A stretch of 64,000 nt of DNA. Origin: Escherichia phage EI-SP-GF. Below the pieces are notes generated by a model. It was not told where the DNA came from, did not search any database, and saw nothing but the letters and a program-made list of their open reading frames with translations. The stretch's first letter is position 1; every line of letters starts with the position of its first letter. The stretch lies in the sequence record OR992645.1, one strand, 5' to 3'. The position numbers and the translations under genes were made by a program. Shown here piece after piece: positions 40,932 to 62,501 of the stretch.

Positions 40932-42308
40932 ATGCCATATTTAGATAAAGTGGTAGATGTTACAGTTAACCTCGGAACCCAACCTATTGACACTGTAGGT
41001 TTCGAAACTCCCCTGTTCATCGCTATCCACAACAACTTTACTGAGCGAGCTCGCGTATATGCGGAGCTGGATCAGATGGTGGAAGATGGTTTCGCACAAG
41101 GCTCTGCAGCGTATGAGTTTGCAGCAAAAGCTTTTGGTGGTGTATTCCCTCCACAATATGTTATGATCGGCAGACAGGCCAAAGAAAAAACCACTGTAGA
41201 TTTTAAAGGTATTGCTGCCGCAGCTGATACTGATGTCGTAATGACTATTGCAAAAGGTGGCTACAATACCTCTCTGATAGTGCCTATCTCTGGTGGAACA
41301 GGTGCAACTCAGATTGCAGAGTCAATGAAGACTAAAATCGAAGCAGATGATAATTTGGACGGTATCACTGTAGAGGCTGAAGAAGGTGTTATCACCATCA
41401 CTGGTGACTGCACTGTTGGTTATCATACTGGTAACTATACAATCAAAAATATCGCCAATTCTGAAAAACCTTCTACAATAGTTGATAAGATCAATGCTGA
41501 GCGGGACAATTGGTACTTCCTGTGCCATGAAGACCACACCGACATTGAAGCATGTGCTAAGTGGGCTCAGGCCAACTACAAGCTGCACGTCTACTCTACT
41601 GCAGAAGATGTGACTGGCAAAGACAGTAACATCGCTACCAAACTGAAAGCTGCACAATATGACAGTGTTGGCATGTACGATCCTCGTGCAGATAAGGACT
41701 TCCCGGAGGGTGGTATCATAGGTGCTATGGCATCCAACGATCCGTCCTACGGTGACAGCTTGCACTTAAAACAGATGCCAGGTGTGATTGCACCATCTCT
41801 GACTTTAACTCAGCGTATGGCGATTTGGGAAAACCACGTTAACTTCTACAGAATGATTAACGGTGTTGGCGCTTTCTGGGAAGGTAAGTGTGCTTCAGGT
41901 CAGTATGCAGACGCTATTCGTTTTGCACACTGGATCAAGTTCAGATCTGAAGAATCCATGTTTGGGTACATGCATCGCCGCTCCAACATGGGTTTAAGCA
42001 TGAAGATGTCTGATGATGATCTTCCGGTTATCAAGTCTGTTCTGATGAACAACCCGATCAATACTGGCATTAAGAATGGCGCGATCCTGACAGGTTTTGA
42101 CGAAGACAACAATGTGTTCTACGACCCGATCATCACAGTTCCTAAACGTGCAGAGATCCCAACCAATCAGTTGGCTGCTCGTGTTCTGGAAGGTGTGAAA
42201 GTAGAACTGGTGTATAACAACGCCCTGCACTTCGTTCGTATCCGGATCAACGTCCTTCTGGACAAGGTTGGTTCTAAATCCACCAATGCTGTTGCAATGA
42301 CTGAATAA
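40932..42308 (+). CDS. putative major tail protein (tail sheath-like by size and gene order)
   Basis: 458 aa, followed by a 157-aa tube-like gene, chaperone pair and tape measure; order typical of contractile tails. Confidence 0.45.
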   Translation: MPYLDKVVDVTVNLGTQPIDTVGFETPLFIAIHNNFTERARVYAELDQMVEDGFAQGSAAYEFAAKAFGGVFPPQYVMIGRQAKEKTTVDFKGIAAAADTDVVMTIAKGGYNTSLIVPISGGTGATQIAESMKTKIEADDNLDGITVEAEEGVITITGDCTVGYHTGNYTIKNIANSEKPSTIVDKINAERDNWYFLCHEDHTDIEACAKWAQANYKLHVYSTAEDVTGKDSNIATKLKAAQYDSVGMYDPRADKDFPEGGIIGAMASNDPSYGDSLHLKQMPGVIAPSLTLTQRMAIWENHVNFYRMINGVGAFWEGKCASGQYADAIRFAHWIKFRSEESMFGYMHRRSNMGLSMKMSDDDLPVIKSVLMNNPINTGIKNGAILTGFDEDNNVFYDPIITVPKRAEIPTNQLAARVLEGVKVELVYNNALHFVRIRINVLLDKVGSKSTNAVAMTE

Positions 42309-43742: not shown

Positions 43743-46082
43743 ATGGCTACAAATAAGATAGTTGCCACAACAGTCAACAAGATTGGCTTTGAGATAGAGA
43801 ACTCCTCCTACAAAAAAGCTGTAGAGAAAATTCGCAGTATCGGGAAGGAGTTCAGGAAACTGGGCGAGGATTTTAACTCAGCCAACCCTATGAGCAGATG
43901 GCAGGCAGTGGCTGTTAAAACTCAGCAGACAATGCAACGTGTTGCCAGACAGCAATCCCAAGCAAATGCTAAACTGCACAGGGAGAGCGTTGCTCAGGCC
44001 AAGAAAGAGGCTGCAGTAAAGGCTGCAATAGAGCGCAGGGAGAATGCAAGACGTAAGCAAGCTGTAGGCAATATTACCGCCAAAAACCCAGAGATGGCTA
44101 GGATGCGTAAGTTCTACCAGCAGCAAGCTAAAGAGGCCAAAAAAGCTGCCAAATCTGCACCAGTATCCTATGGTGGTTATAAGGCACCTAAGGCAAGAGT
44201 TCTTGCTAACGCCAAGTCTTTCAGATATATCCCAGGCAACCCTAACATGGGTGGGGTGGCTTCAGATCCTAATCTTGTGAAAGCCCAGACTGCTGCCATG
44301 AACCGTTATCACAGACAGTTAAGAAGGGACAGCAAAGCTGGGATGGATAATAGGCTTATGGCAGATCGTGAGGCAAGGAGAACCCACCTCTACAACTCTG
44401 CGATAAGACTTTCTGCCAAATATGGTGCCGGATTCCGTGGTAGTCTGTCTGGATATTCGGAGTTGGAGTCCAGATTTGCTCGCGGGGAAATGAGTAAGTC
44501 AACCTTTAACGCCCACCTGTCTGCGTTGCAGTCTGGGTTTAAAAGTGCCACCAGCCAAACTCTGACCCTCGGTGATGCTATGAGGGATTTGCGTAGATCT
44601 GTAATCAACGCTACAGCTGCGTATACCGCTTTTTCTGGATTTGCTGCAGTTAACAGATCCGGTCATATGATGGAGGGGGCAAGTGCTGCTCTTACTGCTG
44701 TTACTGGAGATCCAAACAAAGCCAACAGTGAAGTTGCGTTTGTCCAGCAGGAGGCTATGCGTCTTGGTTTTGACCTCAAGTCTGGTCTTCAGGGTTATTC
44801 TCAGATGGCGGTGAACGCCAAAAATCAGATGACAAACCAAGAGGTGCATGAGCTATTCTCTGCATACTCGCAGTATGCTGCTGCTTACGGTGCCGATGAG
44901 GTAAAATACCAGCGCGGTATTATGGCAATCCAGCAAATGCTCGGTAAAGGGCAAGTAATGTCCGAAGAACTGAAGCAACAACTTGCTGAAGCATTACCTG
45001 GTGCATACGAACCTTTTATCAAAGCTACCCAAGAGGCTTTTGGTCTTGCTGAGCTCTCCATGGATCAGTTCATGGATATGATGAAAAAAGGTGAAGTTAA
45101 AACAGCCAAGATCATGAAGTATGTGGCTAAGTACATGAATGAGGCATCTGCAGCTGGTTATGAAAGAATGCAGAAGTCTAACGTACTGGCAGAAAACAGA
45201 CTGAAAACCTTTATTGAACTGTCCCGTCAGAAACTGTTCACACGTTGGGCAGATGAGCTGACAGAGTTCTACTACACCTTAATCCGCACAGGTGAGACCC
45301 TGCAATTTGTGTGGGATGCCGCTGGTGATTTTGTTAGCGGGTTTGTGAGAGGTTTGAACTGGGTTGTTGGTGAACTAAACAACACTATAGTTAAGATCCG
45401 TTTGTTTTTCCTTGAATGGGGAATTAAATGGGGTATCATAACTGCTAAGACGAAGGAATATTCCGAAGAGATACATGACACCTTTAGCATGGCTAAATGG
45501 GCAGGGTATGCTGCTGCAATCATGCTGGTAGTGAACGCCCTTACCAAAGGGTTTGTTATGGCATCCATGCTTGTAAAAACATTTAAGTTCCTCAGCAACC
45601 TGAGAGGTGCAGCTGGAGCTGCAGGTGCTGGTGCAGTAACCGCAGACGGCTCTGGAGGAGGAGCAGCCGGAAAAGGTGGTGGAGGCATTAAGACGCCTGG
45701 CGGTAAAGTTGGCATTCTTGGCAAACTAGGTATCATTGGCACAATACTGAGTGCCGGAGAACTATTTAATGACCGTTTCAACCCGCTGAGTGAAAGAAAT
45801 CAACAGCTGGATACCATCAGCGATATGATTCGTAAAGACATCATATCTGGAGGTAACGGGTTTGTTGATCCTCTAAGCACCTTGCCGGGAGGTACTCTTC
45901 CGTTACCAGGTGGTCCTGGTTTTGCTTCTCAATTAAGAACCATGGAAATGCTACCTTTAGAGATCAGTGATGGTAAAATCACGATTTCAATAGATGAGGG
46001 TGAGTTTAGCAAAATATTTGATGCAAAACTTGAGTGGGAGAACAGTAAAGATATCAACTTTATGTCCACAGACCTTTGGTAA
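43743..46082 (+). CDS. tail tape measure protein
   Basis: 779 aa, Ala/Gln/Lys-rich helical sequence with Gly-rich segment, downstream of chaperones. Confidence 0.8.
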   Translation: MATNKIVATTVNKIGFEIENSSYKKAVEKIRSIGKEFRKLGEDFNSANPMSRWQAVAVKTQQTMQRVARQQSQANAKLHRESVAQAKKEAAVKAAIERRENARRKQAVGNITAKNPEMARMRKFYQQQAKEAKKAAKSAPVSYGGYKAPKARVLANAKSFRYIPGNPNMGGVASDPNLVKAQTAAMNRYHRQLRRDSKAGMDNRLMADREARRTHLYNSAIRLSAKYGAGFRGSLSGYSELESRFARGEMSKSTFNAHLSALQSGFKSATSQTLTLGDAMRDLRRSVINATAAYTAFSGFAAVNRSGHMMEGASAALTAVTGDPNKANSEVAFVQQEAMRLGFDLKSGLQGYSQMAVNAKNQMTNQEVHELFSAYSQYAAAYGADEVKYQRGIMAIQQMLGKGQVMSEELKQQLAEALPGAYEPFIKATQEAFGLAELSMDQFMDMMKKGEVKTAKIMKYVAKYMNEASAAGYERMQKSNVLAENRLKTFIELSRQKLFTRWADELTEFYYTLIRTGETLQFVWDAAGDFVSGFVRGLNWVVGELNNTIVKIRLFFLEWGIKWGIITAKTKEYSEEIHDTFSMAKWAGYAAAIMLVVNALTKGFVMASMLVKTFKFLSNLRGAAGAAGAGAVTADGSGGGAAGKGGGGIKTPGGKVGILGKLGIIGTILSAGELFNDRFNPLSERNQQLDTISDMIRKDIISGGNGFVDPLSTLPGGTLPLPGGPGFASQLRTMEMLPLEISDGKITISIDEGEFSKIFDAKLEWENSKDINFMSTDLW

Positions 46083-47084: not shown

Positions 47085-47465
47085 ATGGAGCTTAAAGATT
47101 GGTGCATAATCACCTTTGTGTGGGACATTGACGGCTTTCCTGATCAGACCATGCGTGTGGTTTTAGATAATGAAACCTATGAAATGCGTATGCAATGGAA
47201 CGAGAGGGATGAGTCCTGGTGGTTATCTCTTGGTCCAGTAGGCGACAGTCCTTTAGTAACCAGAAAAGTAACAGCTTGTCAAGACATTTTAGACGGACTG
47301 CATTACAGAGACGATTTACCGAAGGGTAGGCTGATGGCCCTGTCGTTTAAAGACGATCAATATTGGGGCAGGGTTGGAAGATACAACCTTGGGGCCAGAT
47401 CTGAGCTACAACTTGTATACGGCACCCCAGTTGATCTTTACAAGGAACAGCAAGGGTTAGCATAA
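47085..47465 (+). CDS. hypothetical tail/baseplate protein (126 aa)
   Basis: ORF track; AAGGGGAG RBS. Confidence 0.4.
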   Translation: MELKDWCIITFVWDIDGFPDQTMRVVLDNETYEMRMQWNERDESWWLSLGPVGDSPLVTRKVTACQDILDGLHYRDDLPKGRLMALSFKDDQYWGRVGRYNLGARSELQLVYGTPVDLYKEQQGLA

Positions 47466-48469
47466 TGGCAGAGTATAGACGTAGAACATGGCGATTATTG
47501 TTTGGTCGCCCTGTAGAACATGGCGGAAAATCAAAAACCAATATCCCAAAATCTGTTGAAAAGAAAGGAGAAAGTGATTCTGGCGTTTATGAGATTAGCT
47601 CAGACACAGGTGCTGCCAATATAGAGTTCGACATACAAAAGGATAACACCAAAGAGCCAAACAAAGGCTATGTGATAGTTTACAACCTGTCTGACGATAC
47701 GGTTAACTATCTGGACATGCACCAGGCTGATGCTCTTGCGGTGATGTTTGAGGCTGGCTATGATAATGAGAACCAGTTGATATTCTCCGGAACTGTAGAG
47801 TTTGTTGAAGACAGGTGGGAAGGTCCGACTAGGAAAACTAAGTTCATCTTTGGAGATGGCACTGAGAACATCATTAAGTGCCAAAGCACCAGATCTTATC
47901 AGAAAGGTACACCTCTGGACTCTGTGCTTAATGACCTCCTGAAGGATATGAACTTACCAAAAGGTAGGGTTGTTGGTTTTGGAAACCAAACTTTGCAATA
48001 CTCCATGGCTTTCTCGGGGAATACTGCAGAGAACCTCCGCAGATTTGCAAGACTGACCAACTCAACATTTAGCGTTCAGGATGGGGCTTTATATTGGACC
48101 AAGGTTGGAAAAAGGTTCAAGGACTCTGTGTTTGAAATTAGTGCAGAGTCTGGGATGCACGGATCGCCCACCCCTAAAAACCCAGAGCCTGCGAGAAAAC
48201 GGAAAGCTAAAGCTGCTGCAAAAGGCGGTTCAACATCTAAAAAGAAAAAGAAAAACCCGAAAGAGGACGTTGGTCTTACCGTGACCACATGCCTTAACGG
48301 GGCTATCCTCCCAGAGTCAACCATCTATCTTAAGAGCAGACAATATACAGGCTTCTACAAGGTGATCACAGTGCACCACAAAGGCACCATCGAAGGAGGT
48401 GATTACATTACAGAGCTTGGACTTGGGGAAGCTGTTGGTGGGATTGTTGACAAAACTGAGGAGGTATAA
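47465..48469 (+). CDS. hypothetical baseplate-module protein with Lys-rich insert
   Basis: 334 aa; TAATG overlap with upstream gene; KRKAKAAAKGGSTSKKKKK segment. Confidence 0.4.
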   Translation: MAEYRRRTWRLLFGRPVEHGGKSKTNIPKSVEKKGESDSGVYEISSDTGAANIEFDIQKDNTKEPNKGYVIVYNLSDDTVNYLDMHQADALAVMFEAGYDNENQLIFSGTVEFVEDRWEGPTRKTKFIFGDGTENIIKCQSTRSYQKGTPLDSVLNDLLKDMNLPKGRVVGFGNQTLQYSMAFSGNTAENLRRFARLTNSTFSVQDGALYWTKVGKRFKDSVFEISAESGMHGSPTPKNPEPARKRKAKAAAKGGSTSKKKKKNPKEDVGLTVTTCLNGAILPESTIYLKSRQYTGFYKVITVHHKGTIEGGDYITELGLGEAVGGIVDKTEEV

Positions 48470-53187: not shown

Positions 53188-56100
53188 ATGGCTGATATTA
53201 AAGTTGTCAGAATTGAATCTCTTCCTGCCACTACCGCAGTGACAGAGGATGATTACCTGGTTGTTCAACAACCAGACCTGACCCGTCGTGTAAAAATTGG
53301 CGATGTTGTCCATGTGGATGGGACTGTTTCTCATGTAATCTCCTTTAAGGAAGGTGGTAAGTTAAACGGCCCAATGGATTTTGCCTACTTCGAAGAGGAA
53401 GATCTATACCTGCGTTGGAAAGGCGAATTTCCACACACTGTCCCTGCACTGTCTTCACCATATTCTGACGGTGGTATTACTGACGCTGCGTGGATGGTAT
53501 ATACAGATCCGTCCTTAAGGGAGGAGCTGGAGTCTACCATTGGCGCATCTATGATCATGACAGCCGAAGGGCAGTCTGTCCAAGATGTAATGGATGTTAC
53601 TGTTCAGACAGCCAACGATGCTAAAGCACTTGCACAGCGGGTAGATTTTGGCACAGTGCATACTGTAGGCGATGTTATTCACCTTGTCAACTTTGTTGGT
53701 CCTGCAGTTATTGAAGAGGGAAGAACTACTAACTACCCTTCTGAAGCGGCGGGTGAAAAATTTCTGAACGGTGTGGTATCTCGTCGTGATACTACAACTG
53801 TTGATGGCATTTTCCGTGGCGCTACCTCCGGAGCCATGTATACCATTGCAGTAACCAACGGTGTAGCAACAACAAAAAGAATAGCACTTCGTGACGAATT
53901 TAAACGCCTGGAGGCAAACAACCCAACAAGAACAGTTATCCGTGCCGGAGATGATTTAAACACAGCAGGGTACTTGCAGCTTGATGCAACAGGCCGTTGG
54001 GGTATGTGGAACCAACAAACAGCTTCGTGGCAACCTCTTGCTATAGAGCAAGGCGGCACAGGGGCCAGAGATGCCGCAGGTGCACGCATTAATTTAGGGG
54101 CTTTCTATAAGCAACGTGCAGCCCTTGAGTCAAATTTTAATATCAATAACTTGACTGGTAATCAGGATGGTATATACTACCAGCCGATGACTGCTTATGC
54201 AACTGAGGCAAATGGTTACCCTGCAGGTTCTGGTGCTGGTCACTTGATTGTCTGGCAGAACAATGCTAACGGCGGTACAGGTTGTCGTCAGGAATACTAT
54301 CCATTCTCTAACGTAGATGTTTGGTATTTGAGAACCTATCAGGCCAACACAAATCAGTGGACTGCATGGCAGCCAATGGTCAGACCCCGTAACGATGAGA
54401 CCTTTAGATCGCACATCGGTCTTGGGTCTAGGAATTCTCCTACCTTCGGGCACCTTTACCTGTCTCAAAGCTCGGCTGATGTTAAGTCGGCATCAGGTAT
54501 TGTTAACGGGGACAAATACAGCGCTGACGGTGTCCTTGAGCATGGGTATAGGATCTACTCTGAGGTAAGAAACGACAATAAGGCTTGGTTGACAATCCAC
54601 CTGCACAAAGGCGCAAAAGGATCTGAAACTCATAGATATTTAGGCTTCCGCGAGGATGGGGTCTTAGATTGTCCTAAATATATGCAGGTTGGTGATCTGA
54701 ACGGTCAGCTGGCAAACTGGGGACTTGGAGAATGGATCCGCAGTTCAGGAGCAGAAAGAGGTTTCTGGGGATCTAAGAAAGCCGCCAAGATGGTTATCTG
54801 GGATGGCGGTATGGACGAGCAAGGTGAAGGAACGCTTGAGTGGGGTGTTTATAACAACCGGAAAGCCAAATGGGAACCACTACCGATAGCTTGTGGTGGT
54901 ACCAGTGCCAGGACTGTAGGGGATGCTCAAGCACAATTCAGAATCCCTCTGGCATCAGGCGCTAGACCATATGTAAACCTGCCTAGAACTGCAGCTATGC
55001 AGGACGGTAAGTATTATCCTATTATCGTCAGAACTGACCCCAACTTTGCAGCAACTATCGGGACAGATTTAACCATTGTCACCAGATCTTCTTCTGGCGG
55101 CGACCCAATGAACTGTGCTACACTACAGTGTCACTACAGAACTGGTGGCTGGACAGACAGAGGTGATTCTTTCCAAGGGGTTATTAATTTCTACCAAAAC
55201 GAGAGAGCAATCCTCGGATGTGTATCTCCAACCAGAGGTAAGCAGGAGTATGTTGCATTCTATGTAGAGGCACGTGCATTCCCTGTTACAGTATATGCTG
55301 GCGCTACTGTAATAGAAGTGTCAACCAGGGAGGCTGATTGGCAAGTAGGCAACGTGACAGGTAACCAAGATGGTGTCAAGTTCTGTGCTCCTCTGGAATC
55401 TGCAGATTTGAGTCTTGCAATCAAAGGTGATGATGTAACAAACACCAGACCTCTGGTTGAGTTCAAAGGAACATCAGGTTTCTACACTGGTGGTGGAACT
55501 ATGTGGCACTACCTGGGGACTCCTGAACGCTATGCAGTGATGAGCAAAACGAACATGCCTAAAGTCGAGCTGTGGGCAGACGGTCTTGACTATTTGTGCT
55601 ACGGCGGTCCTAGAAAGGCATTATTCTCTAACGCGGGATTCCAGTGTGCATCTGACGGAACAGAGGATCTAACTAACGGCACGTTTACCTCTAAATGTGG
55701 TAATGGTGCTGGCCTTAAAGGCCAAGCAGAGTTCAGGTCTACTCCAGAAGCTGGTCAAGTTATTGTTCGAGATGTTGTGGGAACAGCTCATAGATTCTAC
55801 AACTTCAACAAAGATGGTACTTTCTCAGCCCCAGGTGGTTTTGTATGTCATACTGGTGGAGACTGGAACAACCAGTTCGGGCCTAATAACCCGTCAAAAA
55901 TAATGGCTGGCAACGTCAACGGACCAGAAGGTTCGATGGTTGTTGGTGGGTTGTCTGTGGCGTTTTCTGGAAACTATGCCTTCCAAATGGCTGGTCGCCT
56001 TGATCAGTTATACACCAGATCTATTGAGGGTGGTAACCACAGGGCGTGGAACAAAGTTATTCAGCACCGTGGTCAAGGTCTGGGGACAGAAGACCTTAAT

Positions 56101-56994
56101 GCCTACGATGGTAGCCGTGAAGGTTTCTATCACCAAGGTTCAAACGCTGACGCACTTGTAATAGATCGCCACTACCCTGCTCCGTACGCTGGTACACTGC
56201 TTGTTTACAAAAACACAGCTAACAGACCTCAAGGTTGTGTGCAGGAATATATCACCTATTTTGGTGACAGATATACTCGTGCTGGTAACTACGTTGGCGA
56301 TGTCTTTACTTGGGAAGAATGGAGACACGATGCTGGTAAAGGCATTCAGTTAAGACCTAATTACACTTTTGGTGAAACCAGTAATCAACTGGAAATTCAT
56401 GTCGGTGCTAATAGTCTTTCTAGCAACGCCGATAACTTACCTACCAATACAGGTAGAATGTTCTATTGGGGTAACGCAGACAGGAAGAACGTGCTTGAGT
56501 TTCAGGTAAACGACAACGCTGCATCTGCTAGCTGGGTATTCCACTGTGGCACTAGGTCAGACGAGGCTAAGTCAAGATATTTTGCTGTCAACGGTGTAGT
56601 AGAGTGCACCACTGTGAGCCAGAGCTCTGATAGAGACCTGAAGGACAATATAGAGGTTATTCCTAACGCGCTGGAAGCTATCCGTAAGATGAAGGGCTAT
56701 ACCTACACTTTAAAAGAGAATGGTATGCCTCACGCGGGGGTAATTGCTCAAGAGGTCATGGAAGCATTGCCAGAGGCAGTAGGGTCTTTCGTGAAAAGGA
56801 AGGAAATCCCAAACCCTGATCAAGATGGAACTCCTTTGATAACAGAAGAAAGGTTCTATAACGTTGACTACGCAGCTGTAACAGGCTTGCTTGTCCAGGT
56901 TTGCAGGGAACAGGACGATAAAATAACCGCCCTTGAGGAGCAGGTTAAAAAATTGACAGAGGTTGTTACTGGGTTGCAAGAGAAACTGAAGTAA
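53188..56994 (+). CDS. tail fibre with C-terminal intramolecular chaperone (S74-like) domain
   Basis: C-terminal SDRDLKDNIEVIPNALEAIRKMKGYTYTLKE...GVIAQEV matches the autoproteolytic fibre chaperone signature; Gly-rich repetitive shaft. Confidence 0.75.
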   Translation: MADIKVVRIESLPATTAVTEDDYLVVQQPDLTRRVKIGDVVHVDGTVSHVISFKEGGKLNGPMDFAYFEEEDLYLRWKGEFPHTVPALSSPYSDGGITDAAWMVYTDPSLREELESTIGASMIMTAEGQSVQDVMDVTVQTANDAKALAQRVDFGTVHTVGDVIHLVNFVGPAVIEEGRTTNYPSEAAGEKFLNGVVSRRDTTTVDGIFRGATSGAMYTIAVTNGVATTKRIALRDEFKRLEANNPTRTVIRAGDDLNTAGYLQLDATGRWGMWNQQTASWQPLAIEQGGTGARDAAGARINLGAFYKQRAALESNFNINNLTGNQDGIYYQPMTAYATEANGYPAGSGAGHLIVWQNNANGGTGCRQEYYPFSNVDVWYLRTYQANTNQWTAWQPMVRPRNDETFRSHIGLGSRNSPTFGHLYLSQSSADVKSASGIVNGDKYSADGVLEHGYRIYSEVRNDNKAWLTIHLHKGAKGSETHRYLGFREDGVLDCPKYMQVGDLNGQLANWGLGEWIRSSGAERGFWGSKKAAKMVIWDGGMDEQGEGTLEWGVYNNRKAKWEPLPIACGGTSARTVGDAQAQFRIPLASGARPYVNLPRTAAMQDGKYYPIIVRTDPNFAATIGTDLTIVTRSSSGGDPMNCATLQCHYRTGGWTDRGDSFQGVINFYQNERAILGCVSPTRGKQEYVAFYVEARAFPVTVYAGATVIEVSTREADWQVGNVTGNQDGVKFCAPLESADLSLAIKGDDVTNTRPLVEFKGTSGFYTGGGTMWHYLGTPERYAVMSKTNMPKVELWADGLDYLCYGGPRKALFSNAGFQCASDGTEDLTNGTFTSKCGNGAGLKGQAEFRSTPEAGQVIVRDVVGTAHRFYNFNKDGTFSAPGGFVCHTGGDWNNQFGPNNPSKIMAGNVNGPEGSMVVGGLSVAFSGNYAFQMAGRLDQLYTRSIEGGNHRAWNKVIQHRGQGLGTEDLNAYDGSREGFYHQGSNADALVIDRHYPAPYAGTLLVYKNTANRPQGCVQEYITYFGDRYTRAGNYVGDVFTWEEWRHDAGKGIQLRPNYTFGETSNQLEIHVGANSLSSNADNLPTNTGRMFYWGNADRKNVLEFQVNDNAASASWVFHCGTRSDEAKSRYFAVNGVVECTTVSQSSDRDLKDNIEVIPNALEAIRKMKGYTYTLKENGMPHAGVIAQEVMEALPEAVGSFVKRKEIPNPDQDGTPLITEERFYNVDYAAVTGLLVQVCREQDDKITALEEQVKKLTEVVTGLQEKLK

Positions 56995-57093: not shown

Positions 57094-57684
57094 ATGTTTT
57101 TATGGGAAAGGCCTAGATACCTTCCAGATATTAGATTGGAGCTGCTGGCAGATATTGTTACGTTTAAAAGTCCGTTTACAGGTAAAACGCAAAAAGTGAC
57201 CTATGCCACACCTAACTGGAAAGGCACTTTGACGGTTTCCAATATCAGCGAGTCACAGTTGCTAGAGCTTAAGAGCTTTGTTGATCAGGTGTATAAAGAC
57301 GGGAACATTTTTCTTATTAAAACGTACGGTCACTCAGTAACAGCTAATGAGCCAATCGCCCTTGGGCCTACCGGTAACGACGATTTTTTGAAGACGGTCG
57401 GATGGGAGCCAAACAGAGACATAGCCAGAGCTGGGGATAAAATATCTGTTAACGATGAATTGAAAGTGGTAACAGCTCCAGTGCGCAGCGATGGTGTTGG
57501 GTCTGCTGTTATAAGCATATCTCCAAGACTTAGAAAACCTATTGCCGCAGGGGACACTATGAAGATAATAACTCAATCCCCAAAGGGTAGGTTTCATATC
57601 AGAGATATTTATAAAATTAAGCAAAAAGTCGATGCTATGCAAAAAGGTGATAATATAGTTATCAACTTCTTTGAGGATTTCTAA
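57094..57684 (+). CDS. hypothetical tail tip protein (196 aa)
   Basis: First gene of cluster ending with J-like protein; GGAGG RBS. Confidence 0.35.
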   Translation: MFLWERPRYLPDIRLELLADIVTFKSPFTGKTQKVTYATPNWKGTLTVSNISESQLLELKSFVDQVYKDGNIFLIKTYGHSVTANEPIALGPTGNDDFLKTVGWEPNRDIARAGDKISVNDELKVVTAPVRSDGVGSAVISISPRLRKPIAAGDTMKIITQSPKGRFHIRDIYKIKQKVDAMQKGDNIVINFFEDF

Positions 57685-57685
57685 G

Positions 57686-58237
57686 ATGATTAGAGCGCCA
57701 TTAGATAATTTATTTCTTGAAAAGCTGGAGCTTGATAGTGTTGAGATCTTAATTGCTGCAAAGCTAGAGCTACCAACAGGGACTGTCAGGGTGTGCTCAG
57801 GAACTGGTGTTGTGGTGATTGAGGGGCAACATTTTATAGGGATAGGTGGATCAGCAACATTGACTGCTGTGTCTGAGAAAGATGCTACCAACTTCGGATC
57901 TGTGGTAGCAACATTGAACGGATTTGATCCCAAGTATGTAGGTGATCTGCTGAAGACAGAGTATTCGGGTTGTCGTGCCACGTTGTATATCACAGCTATG
58001 GAGAATGGTTTACCTGTTACAACCAATGGCTTGTTTGACGGCCTTATAACAGACATGGCTATTCAGACAGGGGAGAATAGTGCTTTGTCCATATCCATAT
58101 CTTCCATCTTCAACAGCTGGTTAAGAGGTTTTCCTTATCGATACACAGAGGAGAGCCATAGCTCAAGAAACGATAATGACAGATTTTTTAAATATGTGGA
58201 TCAGGTGGCAAGCCGCCCGATCATTTGGGAGGTTTAA
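57686..58237 (+). CDS. hypothetical tail tip protein (183 aa)
   Basis: Start moved to ATG 57686 just after upstream stop. Confidence 0.35.
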   Translation: MIRAPLDNLFLEKLELDSVEILIAAKLELPTGTVRVCSGTGVVVIEGQHFIGIGGSATLTAVSEKDATNFGSVVATLNGFDPKYVGDLLKTEYSGCRATLYITAMENGLPVTTNGLFDGLITDMAIQTGENSALSISISSIFNSWLRGFPYRYTEESHSSRNDNDRFFKYVDQVASRPIIWEV

Positions 58238-58662
58238 TGAGCACACACCCTCGTTTAGTAGACTGGCAAGAAAGATTGTGGAAAGTGTTTGACGAAGAAG
58301 CTACCGTCCAGTTTGAATGGGGATTCCACGATTGTTGCACTTTTGCGGCTAAATGTGTTGATGCCCAATATGGAACAGATTTTCTTTCTAACTTTGAAGG
58401 AACGTATAAAACAGAGTTGGAAAGCAAGAGATGGTGCATGCTCCGTTTCAAAACCACCCACCTGCCTACTATTTTTGATCTCTTTTTGACTCGACTGGAT
58501 ACTCCTAAACAGGTTCAGCGTGGCGATATTGTTATTTTCGAAGGTCTGAACGGGCTCACCGCTGGTGTGTTCTGGAACAACCAGATTTGGGCGAAAGGTG
58601 ATAAGGGGATCTTTATGTTCGACATGAAAGATTCTATCGTTGTTGATGTCTGGAGGTATTAA
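58237..58662 (+). CDS. hypothetical tail tip protein with Cys/His motif (141 aa)
   Basis: Start moved to ATG 58237 (GGGAGG RBS, TAATG overlap); WGFHDCCTFAAKC could be a peptidase-like site. Confidence 0.35.
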   Translation: MSTHPRLVDWQERLWKVFDEEATVQFEWGFHDCCTFAAKCVDAQYGTDFLSNFEGTYKTELESKRWCMLRFKTTHLPTIFDLFLTRLDTPKQVQRGDIVIFEGLNGLTAGVFWNNQIWAKGDKGIFMFDMKDSIVVDVWRY

Positions 58663-61600
58663 TGCCAATTGCAATGATTGATAACATCGTTGCTTCTGCA
58701 AGATCTTCGAGCTATGACTGGAACGCATCCAAGGCAGCTCTGGCTGACAGCCTGAACACTGTTACCACCAGAACCCTGGATAAGATTTTCGAAGGTAACA
58801 AATCTTACAGAAGTCAGCAAGATAGACAAAAGCTTCTCAGATCTTCTGCTGCACCTTGCTCTGTAGTGTATGGGAAGACACGCACATCTGGATTGCTTGC
58901 GTTTTTGGAGCAGGACAGGGACAGAACCCTTCATTGTGCTATTGTTCTTGCCAATCATCCCTTGGAAGGTATAGAAGATATACTTATCGACGGTAATCCT
59001 ATTTCCTCGTATGGGGATTTGGTATCGTGGGAGTTACATAACGACAGGAAAACCTCTGATCCTTTCATGGGTACACACTGCCCTTCGTGGTCACCAGACA
59101 TGATAGGTAGAGGGATCAGTTGGCTACGTGCCAGCTTTAAGTTTGACCCTAACAAGTTTCCTTTTGGGTTGCCAAACGTTACACTCGTCAAGGTTGGTAA
59201 AAAATGTTATGATCCTCGTATCAGTAAAGAGGTGTATACCAATAACGCTGCCTTGGTGATTCTGGACTACCTAAGAACGTACCTTAAATGTCCTGACGAA
59301 ACCATCAACTGGGAGTCCTTCAAGGAAGCTGCCAACATATGCGATGAGGCTGTAAAAAACGCGGACGGAACCAGTGAGCGCCGTTACACCATTAATGGCG
59401 AGTTCGACATGGATGAAGCACCAGCAAGCATTATGGCAGAGATGCTGAAAGCTTGTGGTGCAGACCTTAGCTATGTAGCTGGCAAATATGGTCTGCTGGT
59501 AGGTGCATACTATGGCCCGGCAACAATGACACTTAGCGAGAACTGTGTTTGCGGTGAGGTTAAGATCTATCCTGAAGCCTCCTTCGACAAAAGATCCAAC
59601 ACAATAACTGGCAGATTCACTAGTCCGGCCAAAGGGTATTCTGAAACAGATTTTCCATCAGTGTTTGTCCCAGAGTGGGTAGAGAAGGATGGAGAAAGAA
59701 AGATAATCGATATAGATTATCGCTTTGTTACCAGTCCTTATCAAGCTCAGCGTGTTTCTGCAATCTTCTTAAGACGTGCCAGAGCTGGTAGGATTATTGA
59801 AGTAACCTGCAATATGCGGGGTTTTAAATTTAAGCCTGGGCGTTACGTTACGATGGACCTCCCAAGTATTGGTATAGTGGGCCAAGAAATGAGGGTTCTT
59901 GAATGGGAGTTCACCAAAAAGGGCGGTGTCAAGGTAAAACTCCGTCAAGATGCTAAAGAGTGGAATGATGCCACAGGGCAACTTCCGGATTCTGGAGATG
60001 TGGATATTCCGATATCCCCGTCCGGCGTAGCTCAACCGCAAAACTTCAGATACTCTGTTCTTCAAGCTGGGGAAGTAACTCATGGTGTTTTGGCTTGGGA
60101 CAACGTTGGAACTTATGCTCAAAATATTGTGCAGGTAAGAAAGAACGGAGAGATTATTTGGACAGCACAGACAGTTGAGCAGTTTGTCCGCGTAGAAGGA
60201 TTGACCAAAGGGTCATACACAGCAACCGTGGTTGCAACATCTTATAAAGGTGGTGTATCTCCAGAAGCTTACTGCGAGTTTAACATTCAAGCACCTGAAG
60301 CTCCTGTTTCTGTAGAAGTTAAGCAGGGATACTTTGCTATCACCTTGATTCCGCACAGCAGGGACTTAGCAAGTGTAAGCACCCAGTATGATTTTTGGAC
60401 ATCTGGTATGACAAGGTTGCCGGACACAAGTGATGCAACCGTTACTTCAAAAGCCACCCGTATGGGTGTTGGTTCAACTTGGACATCTGAAGGTCTGCAG
60501 AACGATAAGATTTATTATTGGTATATTCGAACCACAAACGCTTTTGGTAGTTCTCAGTTTGTAGAATGCGCTGCACGCTGCTACACCTCTATTGAAGATT
60601 TGATGCCTCAGATAGATGCTGAATTTAAAAAGACAGAAACTTATAAAGAGTTGATGAGCACTTTAGATTCCTCTATCGAGGAGGTTGAAAATCGTGTCAC
60701 AGAGCTTAACAAGTACATGGACGGAAGGGTAGATGAGGCATTCCAACAACTTGGAGATAGGATAGGTGCGGTAGTTGCAGAGACAACTCAGAAGTTTGAG
60801 GATGTCAATGGTAATATCACAGCTCTGGATAGGAAACTTGTTGCTGCACAGAACAAGTTCACCAACGATCTGAACACTGAAAGTGGAAGACTGGCATCCC
60901 TGATCGAGACAACCAATAAAGCAACCACTGATCTTCTGAACAAAAAGACAGAGGCTTTAGACGAGAAATTGGTTGCAGCCAAAGGGGAGTTGGTAGAACA
61001 AATAAGTGGTGTGGAGAGCGGATACCTTGCCGGAGATAAAACTCTAGATGGCAAGATCAATACCCAGAGAACGGAACTTGATGCAAGCATCTTAAGCACC
61101 AACCAGGCGACAGTGGATCTTCTCAACAGGACATCTGAAACTTTGGATCAAAAGATCAGTCAGACAAACGCGACGGTATCTAAGAACTATACCACCCTTG
61201 ATGGTAAGATAACTACCGCAAAAACTGATCTCAATACCTTGATTGCCAATACCAACAAGGCCACCACAGATTTGTTGAATCAGAAAACCTCTGCACTGTC
61301 GGAGCAGATAACTTCTGCACGTGGAGAAATTTCTACCAACAAACAGGCGATTAAGGATTTGGATGGTAAGCTGACCTCCACAAAAACAGCACTGGACGCT
61401 ACAATCTCCGATACCAACAAAGCAACCGTGGATCTTATTAACGGCACAGCGTCAGCTATTCGTCAAGAACTTGCTGTTGCTAAGCAGGAGATCATTGATG
61501 ATGTCGGTGATGTGTCAGAGCTTAGAGCTGCAGTAGCTACAACATCTAAGGCTGTGACAGACTTAGAGGGCAAAGTAACTGCTCAATGGGGCACAAAAAT

Positions 61601-62501
61601 ACAGGTAGACTCCGCAGGGAATAAGTATGTGGCAGGTATCCAATTGGGCATGGAAGGCTCTGGAGGCCAAGTTCAATCATACTTCATGGTTAGTGCAAAC
61701 AACTTTGCGGTATACAACCCCGGAAATGGAACAGCAACCCTTGCTTTCGCAATCAAGAACAACCAAGCATTCTTGAAAGATGCTTTTATAGAGAACGGGA
61801 CGATCTCTTCTGCCAAGATTGCACAAGAAATTTCGTCTAACAACTACGATGGCAACGGGTACCATAAATACGGTTGGTATATTAACAAGAACGGACACGC
61901 CCAGTTTATGGATGTGTGGGTGAAAGGTAACATCAACGCTAGTGCAGGTAACTTCACAGGGGCAGTTAACGCTACCAGTGGCACTTTCCGTGGGGATGTT
62001 TATGCCAATAATGGTAGCTTTAGAGGCACCATAGATGCAACAGGAGGTACATTCCGTGGACGTGTAGAAGCTTCCGTTATCCGTGCTAACCAGTTCGAAG
62101 GTGCAATCGTTGCACATAGGACCTATGGTGACTGTCCTCCGGTATATAACTCGCAGCAGAGGGTTTGCCGTTGGAGGTGGAGATATGTGGACAACGTTTC
62201 AGGGCAAGGTAAGAACGTAACATTCTTCTTTAAACTAAACGGAACCTTGTCTGGCTCCCAGCTCAACGTTTGGATAGCCGGACATCAAATCCTTGCAGGT
62301 AAGAAGTACGGAAACGACAACAACGGCATGTGTGCGGTAGGGATAACTGGTCTCGGTGAACAAACCATAGACATTATCGTCGAGATATACACACCATGGT
62401 CAACGTCAAGCGTGACAGGAGTTACAATATCTTGTCCAACCGTAATAGTTAGTCGTTCAAACTCTAGCTTCCAGGGACCTTGGAACGAGTCTCATGACTA
62501 A
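58662..62501 (+). CDS. lambda gpJ-like tail tip / host specificity protein
   Basis: Segments APEAPVSVEVKQGYFAITLIPH, YYWYIRTTNAFGSSQFVE and KYVAGIQLGMEG...FMVSANNFAV parallel lambda J; internal 30-aa coiled-coil repeats. Confidence 0.7.
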   Translation: MPIAMIDNIVASARSSSYDWNASKAALADSLNTVTTRTLDKIFEGNKSYRSQQDRQKLLRSSAAPCSVVYGKTRTSGLLAFLEQDRDRTLHCAIVLANHPLEGIEDILIDGNPISSYGDLVSWELHNDRKTSDPFMGTHCPSWSPDMIGRGISWLRASFKFDPNKFPFGLPNVTLVKVGKKCYDPRISKEVYTNNAALVILDYLRTYLKCPDETINWESFKEAANICDEAVKNADGTSERRYTINGEFDMDEAPASIMAEMLKACGADLSYVAGKYGLLVGAYYGPATMTLSENCVCGEVKIYPEASFDKRSNTITGRFTSPAKGYSETDFPSVFVPEWVEKDGERKIIDIDYRFVTSPYQAQRVSAIFLRRARAGRIIEVTCNMRGFKFKPGRYVTMDLPSIGIVGQEMRVLEWEFTKKGGVKVKLRQDAKEWNDATGQLPDSGDVDIPISPSGVAQPQNFRYSVLQAGEVTHGVLAWDNVGTYAQNIVQVRKNGEIIWTAQTVEQFVRVEGLTKGSYTATVVATSYKGGVSPEAYCEFNIQAPEAPVSVEVKQGYFAITLIPHSRDLASVSTQYDFWTSGMTRLPDTSDATVTSKATRMGVGSTWTSEGLQNDKIYYWYIRTTNAFGSSQFVECAARCYTSIEDLMPQIDAEFKKTETYKELMSTLDSSIEEVENRVTELNKYMDGRVDEAFQQLGDRIGAVVAETTQKFEDVNGNITALDRKLVAAQNKFTNDLNTESGRLASLIETTNKATTDLLNKKTEALDEKLVAAKGELVEQISGVESGYLAGDKTLDGKINTQRTELDASILSTNQATVDLLNRTSETLDQKISQTNATVSKNYTTLDGKITTAKTDLNTLIANTNKATTDLLNQKTSALSEQITSARGEISTNKQAIKDLDGKLTSTKTALDATISDTNKATVDLINGTASAIRQELAVAKQEIIDDVGDVSELRAAVATTSKAVTDLEGKVTAQWGTKIQVDSAGNKYVAGIQLGMEGSGGQVQSYFMVSANNFAVYNPGNGTATLAFAIKNNQAFLKDAFIENGTISSAKIAQEISSNNYDGNGYHKYGWYINKNGHAQFMDVWVKGNINASAGNFTGAVNATSGTFRGDVYANNGSFRGTIDATGGTFRGRVEASVIRANQFEGAIVAHRTYGDCPPVYNSQQRVCRWRWRYVDNVSGQGKNVTFFFKLNGTLSGSQLNVWIAGHQILAGKKYGNDNNGMCAVGITGLGEQTIDIIVEIYTPWSTSSVTGVTISCPTVIVSRSNSSFQGPWNESHD

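Follow-up and report, generated by a model that had tools for sequence, protein, structure and literature searches.

Diverged tandem units in a J-like fibre protein of an rV5-like Escherichia phage: a probable length-setting helical shaft

Escherichia phage EI-SP-GF is an rV5-like myovirus (genus Vequintavirus), of which a stretch of 64,000 nucleotides (nt; sequence record OR992645.1), here called the window, was analysed. One open reading frame (ORF) of the window, at 58662..62501 on the + strand, encodes a protein of 1279 amino acids (aa) that belongs to the tip attachment protein J/central tail fibre family according to Pfam and PHROGs. We found that this J-like protein contains four diverged tandem units (aa 722-956, nt 60825-61529) within a longer helical region, and that the number of units differs among related phages. 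We think it likely that the region is an extended, alpha-helical and probably trimeric shaft that sets the distance between immunoglobulin (Ig)-like domains and a beta-prism tail-tip domain.

Tandem units in the J-like protein

A reading of the window from the letters alone (the sequence-only reading) had proposed four imperfect coiled-coil repeats of about 30 aa at 60840-61500, encoded by diverged DNA repeats, and had quoted four peptides as examples. We located all four peptides (aa 751-770, 812-832, 863-883 and 917-937); they are the conserved cores of the tandem units. Unit 1 (aa 722-794, 73 aa; 60825..61043, +) carries an 11-aa insertion after LDRK and a Gly-rich tail in the unit alignment. 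It is followed on the same strand by unit 2 (aa 795-845, 51 aa; 61044..61196), unit 3 (aa 846-899, 54 aa; 61197..61358) and unit 4 (aa 900-956, 57 aa; 61359..61529). A profile built from the units re-found exactly four domains in the J-like protein at 80-90 bits each (79.7, 81.8, 84.9 and 90.3 bits from unit 1 to unit 4). The spacing from core to core is 62, 51 and 54 aa, or 186, 153 and 162 nt. The four repeats are real and extend slightly further than had been proposed; the period of about 30 aa is wrong, the true units being 51-73 aa long, and self-comparison at offsets of 25-32 aa scored 9-29, under the 99th percentile of shuffled sequences (36).

In ungapped BLOSUM62 self-comparison the best diagonals scored 122 (offset 54), 116 (offset 51) and 84-88 (offset 62), whereas the maximum over all offsets in composition-matched shuffles averaged 37.6 (standard deviation 6.4; highest value 75). 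The scores at offsets 51 and 54 exceed the shuffles by 12-13 standard deviations, so the check suggested by the sequence-only reading, self-comparison against compositional expectation, places the repeats far above chance. Eleven columns are invariant across the units (D2, K4, L12, I16, T19, N20, A22, T23, D25, L26 and N28), and every unit contains the node I-x-x-T-N-K-A-T-x-D-L-L-N; otherwise the units are 33-39% identical in aa to the first aligned unit.

The DNA agrees with the description as diverged repeats. A core of 30 nt is 70-80% identical between copies and in register, while whole units are 47-53% identical with no exact run longer than 10 nt, and synonymous positions are strongly diverged. 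Tandem Repeats Finder reported nothing in the window or in the related phage ECP32, which rules out a DNA-level tandem repeat, and the unit has no further occurrence in the 64-kb window. A sub-repeat of ~13.5 aa had been suggested by a DNA repeat family with a spacing of 42 nt (D3) and by minor self-comparison peaks at offsets 40, 68 and 80. It was ruled out: the minor peaks are multiples of 3.63, the hydrophobic period described below, and offsets 13 and 27 scored just 9-11.

There is a negligible chance that the repeats are mere compositional or periodic likeness of the kind usual in coiled coils, without true duplication: such likeness to unrelated coiled coils does exist (reversed P22 gp26 scored 58 against 68 forward, and there were weak Pfam matches, far under their cut-offs, to apolipoprotein, SF-assemblin and similar families), but it is refuted by the scores at offsets 51 and 54, by invariant columns that include polar residues, by the in-register DNA cores and by the specificity of the unit profile. 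Apolipoprotein A1/A4/E repeats (PF01442), as a candidate identity for the units, were rejected at 17.5 bits against a cut-off of 90.

The unit profile, run against 1.84 billion representative proteins, gave three matches at E <= 0.001, namely the protein's own cluster (four stretches), a relative of the type found in phage FFH2 (three stretches) and one weak outlier; the search added no further family members. The unrelated-looking 755-aa protein P0020, from an eight-member metagenomic cluster in which some members are named 'chromosome segregation ATPase', has tandem 44-aa repeats of the form LDGKLNTANTLLNEKTNEF...GE.SSSKQQVKVLEDSKKE that strongly resemble the unit (Smith-Waterman score 175; profile E 1e-4, five stretches). 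The resemblance may reflect convergence or shared origin.

At the junction with the tail-tip domain lies a remnant fifth core of 16 aa, ELRAAVATTSKAVTDLEGKV (aa 953-968; 61518..61565, +), which matches the profile weakly (3.7 bits) and is kept in relatives with a short neck. The same terminal element, in the form VQETSKAVVDLEGNV, occurs in Seurat, P0006 and P0010, all of which are without repeats. It is the probable ancestral seed of the repeats. On the opposite strand an antisense ORF of 112 aa (60788-61126, -) overlies units 1 and 2; we found nothing to indicate a gene there, and the ORF most likely arises from the composition of the repeats.

The protein as a whole is 98-99% identical to those of rV5/V5, FV3, EmilHeitz, MaxBurger and other members of Vequintavirus. 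It corresponds to gp37 of rV5, also of 1279 aa, which was found in the rV5 virion proteome (PMC3606486), and to bas54_0031 of MaxBurger, identical in length. Two Ig-like J domains (60138..60617, +) form the N-terminal boundary of the helical region. The first, Ig_J (PF24421, aa 493-545), scored 24 bits, under its cut-off of 29; the second, Ig_J_second (PF24489, aa 547-652), scored 105.8 bits against a cut-off of 27. C-terminal to the units lies Phage_Tail_Tip (PF09327, aa 957-1097; 61530..61952, +; 131.2 bits against a cut-off of 22), a homologue of the central straight fibre, a beta-prism, of lambda J. The profile phrog_31, 'central tail fiber J', matched the ORF at E 8.9e-163, and with the two domains above cut-off it bears out the label J-like. 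Sequence matches in the PDB were lambda J (8iyk, 8xcj), the F2 pyocin fibre (25vf) and J-like gp24 (23gd). Foldseek, run with an AlphaFold2 (AF2) monomer model, matched the tail-tip part to the central fibres of lambda and A8 gpJ; that part alone was recovered, and nothing informative was returned for the helices. The distal C-terminal part (aa 1098-1279; 61953..62498, +) is presumed, by inferred function, to be the receptor-binding end. The GenBank labels 'omp-alpha' and 'lateral tail fiber with fibronectin type III domain' were set aside, because they stem from likeness to coiled coils and Ig-like domains and not from functional tests.

Helicity, periodicity and alleles of the shaft

AF2 helices and periodicity together define a helical shaft at aa 644-964 (60591..61553, +). 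When aa 547-1100 were modelled, helices were predicted at aa 644-656, 659-787, 794-948 and 952-964. The two long ones, of 129 and 155 residues, had a predicted local distance difference test score (pLDDT) mostly of 66-90 by block. The sole real break in the model is GYLAGDK (aa 788-793), within a Gly-rich, acidic segment, SGVESGYLAGDKT (aa 783-793; 61008..61040, +), that is a predicted helix break or kink. In alignment this segment is present in the rV5 and ECP32 alleles and missing from the FFH2 allele, whose shaft was predicted as one unbroken helix of 210 residues (pLDDT 82-94). Proline occurs once (aa 649) in 335 residues. Long uninterrupted helices, as expected of a canonical coiled coil, are thus predicted in both alleles.

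The hydrophobic residues do not follow a heptad. Over aa 641-975 the hydrophobic period was 3.62-3.64 (power 5.16; shuffle maximum 1.74). When one period (3.63) and one phase were imposed, 60 of the 78 strong hydrophobic residues fell within +-60 degrees of one face, where ~26 were expected. The hydrophobic moment was 0.153 at 3.63 (shuffle maximum 0.076), 0.039-0.047 at 3.67 and 0.01 at 3.5, which rules out a canonical heptad coiled coil. The amphipathic stripe is continuous over ~307 residues and runs through all four units, with node residues I, T, N, T and L pointing to the core and K, D and N outside, 111-177 degrees from the core direction. The term coiled coil in the sequence-only reading was apt in that the region is helical and amphipathic, and inapt as regards the heptad. 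Such a pattern is expected of a long amphipathic helix with a near-straight stripe, as in a bundle of mixed heptad and hendecad spacing; the helices would be near-straight because a core period of ~3.63 mixes the two.

A survey of repeat number among related phages, which the sequence-only reading had suggested, was based on a phage collection in which 114 records had the region (54 at 95% identity or more, one at 88%, 15 at 78-80% and 44 at ~38%); a general homologue search with a word prefilter gave just 18 proteins, most of them fragments. We measured the shaft from aa 659 to 8 aa before the motif AQWG and expressed it in nm as if it were one helix. At least three alleles exist in the genus Vequintavirus. 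The FFH2-type protein (1199 aa) has three units in a shaft of 227 aa (~34 nm), the rV5-type protein of the window (1279 aa) four units in 307 aa (~46 nm) and the ECP32-type protein (1381 aa) six units in 409 aa (~61 nm), the two extra ECP32 units being 44 aa long. In spite of these whole-unit insertions and deletions, the stripe of 3.63-3.64 is kept in all three. On sequence grounds, fibre length should differ with repeat number among these phages, in expected steps of ~12-15 nm.

The nearest relatives outside the genus are the J proteins of Queuovirinae siphoviruses (~53% identity), together with a number of metagenomic fragments. In these the neck is 72-112 aa long, its period is heptad-like (3.52-3.55), the unit is missing and the terminal element VQETSKAVVDLEGNV is kept. 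Between the anchors LMPQID and AQWG the distance is 72-76 aa in three metagenomic relatives and 111-112 aa in Seurat and P0007, both groups with zero units, and 247 aa in FFH2 (three units), 327 aa in the window (four) and 429 aa in ECP32 (six). Given the short neck and the lack of units in the siphovirus relatives, the repeats look like an expansion of the neck in the Vequintavirus lineage. The case adds a natural series, from zero units in siphovirus relatives to three, four and six in otherwise near-identical phages.

Some records in the collection deserve separate mention. In V18 (NC_041937.1) a clean deletion of 1039 nt (J nt 1922-2960, ~aa 641-987; equivalent to 60583-61621 of the window) takes the whole shaft and shifts the frame, leaving a truncated J of 691 aa and a separate downstream ORF; this could be a natural knockout or an assembly artefact. 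In vB_Eco_Alma (OV101294.1, 1350-4950) an FFH2-type J is annotated as two overlapping coding sequences split within the shaft, an apparent frameshift or sequencing error. Eighteen records (MG0656xx) labelled as Campylobacter phages (C2, C9, A112b, D# and others) carry the J gene at ~98% identity to rV5-like phages of E. coli, and are probably mislabelled or contaminant genomes.

The shaft alleles differ far more than their surroundings. Against ECP32, nt identity was 96-100% up to ~aa 690, apart from two 30-aa windows at 92-93%, fell to 57-81% over aa 691-930 (60732..61451, +), and was 91-98% from ~aa 931 to ~aa 1140, falling to 89% over aa 1141-1170. At four-fold degenerate sites the shaft differed by 0.45-0.63 and the N-terminal flanks by 0.03-0.07. 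Against FFH2 the shaft was 47-62% identical and the flanks 88-98%. Such a local jump in synonymous divergence is not explicable by faster protein evolution; we therefore conclude that the shaft is an old allele moved by recombination, and it is evident that the whole shaft has been swapped as a cassette through recombination in the conserved flanks.

The proposal that the repeats themselves can mediate recombination does not hold for the present copies, because at 47-53% nt identity and with exact runs of 10 nt or fewer they cannot pair for homologous recombination. Even the younger ECP32 units are just 64-73% identical. The in-register changes in unit number have the look of old unequal crossover or slippage. 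A second mosaic segment covers J aa 1171-1279 (62172-62498), at ~81% nt identity to ECP32, against 94-97% just upstream; compared with FFH2, identity was 83-84% over aa 1171-1260. By its sequence pattern this segment, the last ~110 aa, is consistent with an exchangeable receptor-binding end.

Proposed role of the shaft and alternatives

We propose that the four units make up most of a ~320-residue helical region between the Ig-like domains and the beta-prism domain, and that this region would form an extended bundle of parallel alpha-helices, trimeric as other fibres of the J family are. It would act as a rigid spacer that fixes the distance of the tail-tip and C-terminal parts from the attachment point. 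The shaft would have grown by in-register tandem duplication of a short neck like that in the siphovirus relatives, and recombination in the conserved flanks would carry alleles with three, four and six units from one near-identical phage to another. Comparison among phages gives good support to the reading as a helical fibre segment that sets length. The parallel trimer is probable by analogy with solved J-family trimers, F-type pyocin shafts and published AF2-multimer models. As to the earlier claim that repeats of this kind set fibre length, the variation of unit number among relatives agrees with it, and the role itself is one we infer.

Several observations weigh against this proposal. 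The AF2 runs were of monomers with a predicted template modelling score (pTM) of 0.27-0.28, and secondary structure alone was taken from the models. The composition of the shaft (T 14.9%, N 7.2%, S 7.2%, G 4.7%) is unusual for a stable coiled coil, and the GYLAGDK break in the rV5 allele could be a hinge. The phage has a baseplate hub of its own, which bears on the place of the fibre in the virion; cryo-electron microscopy (cryo-EM) of Bas49 and Bas54 showed only three of nine annotated fibres in the proximal baseplate region. The thin fibres of 70 nm reported for rV5 are a candidate for the J-like fibre. According to HIDEN-SEQ, Bas54 growing on E. coli K-12 tolerates disruptive insertions in bas54_0026, 0027, 0028, 0031 and 0041, whereas on strains with O-antigen or capsule lateral fibre genes become conditionally essential. 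The tolerance includes the J-like gene itself (bas54_0031), and from these insertions in Bas54 it follows that the J-like fibre and the distal-tail-protein homologue are accessory on that host.

Among known systems, F-type pyocins are the closest in arrangement; our sources for comparison were F2 (PDB 25vf), F7 (He et al. 2026 preprint) and Gu et al. 2026. Like the J-like protein, their shaft belongs to the J family and places a helix between fibronectin type III/Ig domains and a PF09327-type beta-prism, and the two align through the junction. The pyocin shaft, three-stranded in solved structures, also has a Gly-induced kink, as predicted here (PMC13455828, PMC12874032). The shafts differ in length (~307 against 163 residues) and in the four recognisable tandem units of the window. 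The pyocin fibre, moreover, sits at the tip of a non-contractile tube, whereas here the gene is dispensable and belongs to a contractile-tailed phage, and the strand motif SxSxxMxxLxS is not enriched. With Queuovirinae J (for example that of Seurat) and lambda gpJ the protein shares Ig_J and Phage_Tail_Tip domains and the same four-gene module (distal tail, tail, DUF6950 and J); unlike the Queuovirinae proteins with their 72-112-aa neck, the Vequintavirus proteins have the shaft as an insertion of 170-350 aa at the neck.

The P22-like needle gp26 is a trimeric fibre whose coiled-coil shaft varies among relatives from 11 to 16 heptads (220-320 Angstrom; PMC3741392). Its core (PDB 4lin, 4zxq) has the short motifs LDG[KR]xTTA and A[ER]GEI in common with the shaft. 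In phmmer the gp26 core matched at E 7e-4 (22.8 bits), and the unit profile gave 6.8-8.8 bits. The forward Smith-Waterman score of 68 compares with 35 +- 5.5 in shuffles (maximum 60). The alignment lies within gp26 core residues 100-221. No gp26 N-terminal virion-binding domain was found in the protein, the one stretch that touches the N-terminus being without significance (1.6 bits). The likeness of the motifs is attractive, yet homology to the gp26 core is not robust, given the profile bits and a reversed score so near the forward one, and we keep the comparison as an analogy: the similarity is marginal and confined to the coiled-coil core, and the flanking domains differ.

The accessible text of the RBPseg paper (PMC12143355) describes, from AF2-multimer models, a class TC5 of Vequintavirinae and Tempevirinae proteins as elongated fibres with N-terminal beta-sandwiches, large coiled-coil domains and a C-terminal beta-helix. 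TC5 appears to be the same protein type as the J-like protein; that text makes no mention of tandem units, of alleles with three, four and six units, of a mosaic cassette or of the 3.63 periodicity. Variable-length shafts are already known from P22 needles and F-pyocin central fibres, and the present shaft is most likely an ordinary length-setting fibre module of known design, with a clear copy-number polymorphism. New here are the periodicity of 3.63 residues, kept in phase across alleles despite whole-unit insertions and deletions, and a sharply bounded cassette that is swappable between phages. The rV5-like fibre is a convenient system in which to test shaft length against adsorption and host range, and for fibre-length engineering in a phage group used in E. 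coli O157 biocontrol.

Instead of a plain spacer, the shaft might be a scaffold with periodic docking sites, where the nodes, the Gly-rich acidic kink or both bind other Vequintavirus fibres and the unit number sets the count or place of accessory fibres. Every unit of the three alleles keeps TNKATxDLLN unchanged, whereas synonymous sites and the remainder of the unit are near saturation, and the node residues K, D and N lie on the outer face. F-type pyocins carry three side-fibre trimers on the negatively charged kink of their shaft (PMC13455828, PMC12874032), and the finding by cryo-EM of only three of the nine annotated Vequintavirus fibres in the proximal baseplate region also speaks for docking. 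Against it, no partner has been found so far, the kink is missing from the FFH2 allele, and the node residues T, N and T face the core, so that their conservation is largely explicable as polar core layers. We consider docking unlikely; it would add a specific function yet is compatible with a spacer role. A broader version would have a ladder of nodes, roughly every 6.5-9 nm, plus the kink docking fibres, with alleles as differently branched assemblies and the whole siphovirus-type tail-tip module as a co-opted, dispensable and exchangeable adsorption organelle of a myovirus, and seems to us quite unlikely. If it were true, the alleles with three, four and six units would encode differences in branching and not in length alone.

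The spacer proposal also assumes a rod. If the helices instead folded back at GYLAGDK, an antiparallel hairpin and, in a trimer, a six-helix bundle of ~20 nm would replace the rod of ~46 nm. The two predicted arms are of similar length and the break is Gly-rich, as a hairpin would need. The FFH2 allele, however, has no break, and its single predicted helix is unable to fold back although the flanking domains are 94-99% identical in aa; were one allele a hairpin and the other a rod, their distal domains would end up in opposite places. Nor is the hydrophobic phase interrupted at the break. A hairpin is accordingly improbable.

Finally, the shaft might be a metastable coiled coil that turns into a beta-prism on receptor binding, in which case extra units would store more energy or lengthen the prism. 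In the F7 pyocin central fibre a coiled coil of 163 residues converts to a beta-prism with the strand motif SxSxxMxxLxS and powers membrane puncture (PMC12874032), and switches of this kind are predicted by He et al. for many J-like proteins of siphophages. The position suits a switch, since the repeat region lies directly N-terminal to the PF09327 beta-prism seed (PF09327 begins at aa 957, and the predicted helix runs to aa 964). An alignment with the F2 pyocin fibre covers units 3-4 and the junction, Thr, Ser and Ala are abundant, and three exact matches to the motif at aa 921-959 adjoin the junction. The motif is nevertheless not enriched: counted in either direction, exact matches in the 310 aa of the shaft numbered 5, where shuffles gave 4.9 +- 2.3 (p 0.55), and its frequency of 1.6-1.7 per 100 aa in the repeats is at shuffle level (p ~0.5). 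Positive controls gave 6.1 (F2 pyocin fragment), 6.5 (P0015, a prophage J of Leclercia) and 8.2 (PDB chain 9l9p_S) per 100 aa (p <= 0.009). The phage, having a contractile tail with sheath, tape measure and hub, does not depend on energy from such a switch; Bas54 can do without the gene, and AF2 predicts the helix with high confidence. Since the motif is not enriched, the tail is contractile and the gene is dispensable, we regard a fold switch of the repeat part as very improbable.

The control chain 9l9p_S, a further solved J-like protein ('putative tail fiber protein', 1172 aa), has near-perfect tandem repeats of its own (EVIATETEALSREIDQLKAQIGDDIQASLTDIR twice) at the same position before the tail-tip domain, and these repeats abound in the switch motif. 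The neck has therefore been expanded in tandem independently in other J lineages.

A tail-tip module in a contractile-tailed phage

Three genes immediately upstream of the J-like ORF, all on the + strand, encode a distal tail protein (57094-57684), a tail protein (57671-58237) and a DUF6950 protein (58225-58662), as assigned by phrog_1302, phrog_2048, phrog_2134 and PF22262. They are syntenic with the tail-tip genes of the siphovirus Seurat and 32-44% identical to them, and they stand in the order typical of a J-family module, in which J directly follows genes for a distal tail protein, a tail protein associated with the hub and a small protein in the K position.

In Seurat the same module comes directly after the tape measure gene. 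In the window it begins ~11 kb past that gene, amid fibre genes, so that the J-family rule of a gene that follows the tape measure gene, for the tip of a non-contractile tail, fails here. Elsewhere in the window lie genes for a sheath (40932-42308), a tape measure protein (43743-46082), a baseplate hub (47465-48469) and a tube, and the annotation of MaxBurger lists a hub, a tube initiator and a central spike that contains lysozyme. A complete siphovirus-type tail-tip module (57094-62501; 32-53% identical to Seurat) thus stands in a phage with contractile-tail genes of its own.

A neighbouring fibre gene (53188-56994, +) encodes 1268 aa with an N-terminal Tail_spike_N domain and a C-terminal Peptidase_S74 intramolecular chaperone domain. 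The FFH2 ortholog, at 4440 nt (1479 aa), is a longer allele and has an additional small ORF after it.

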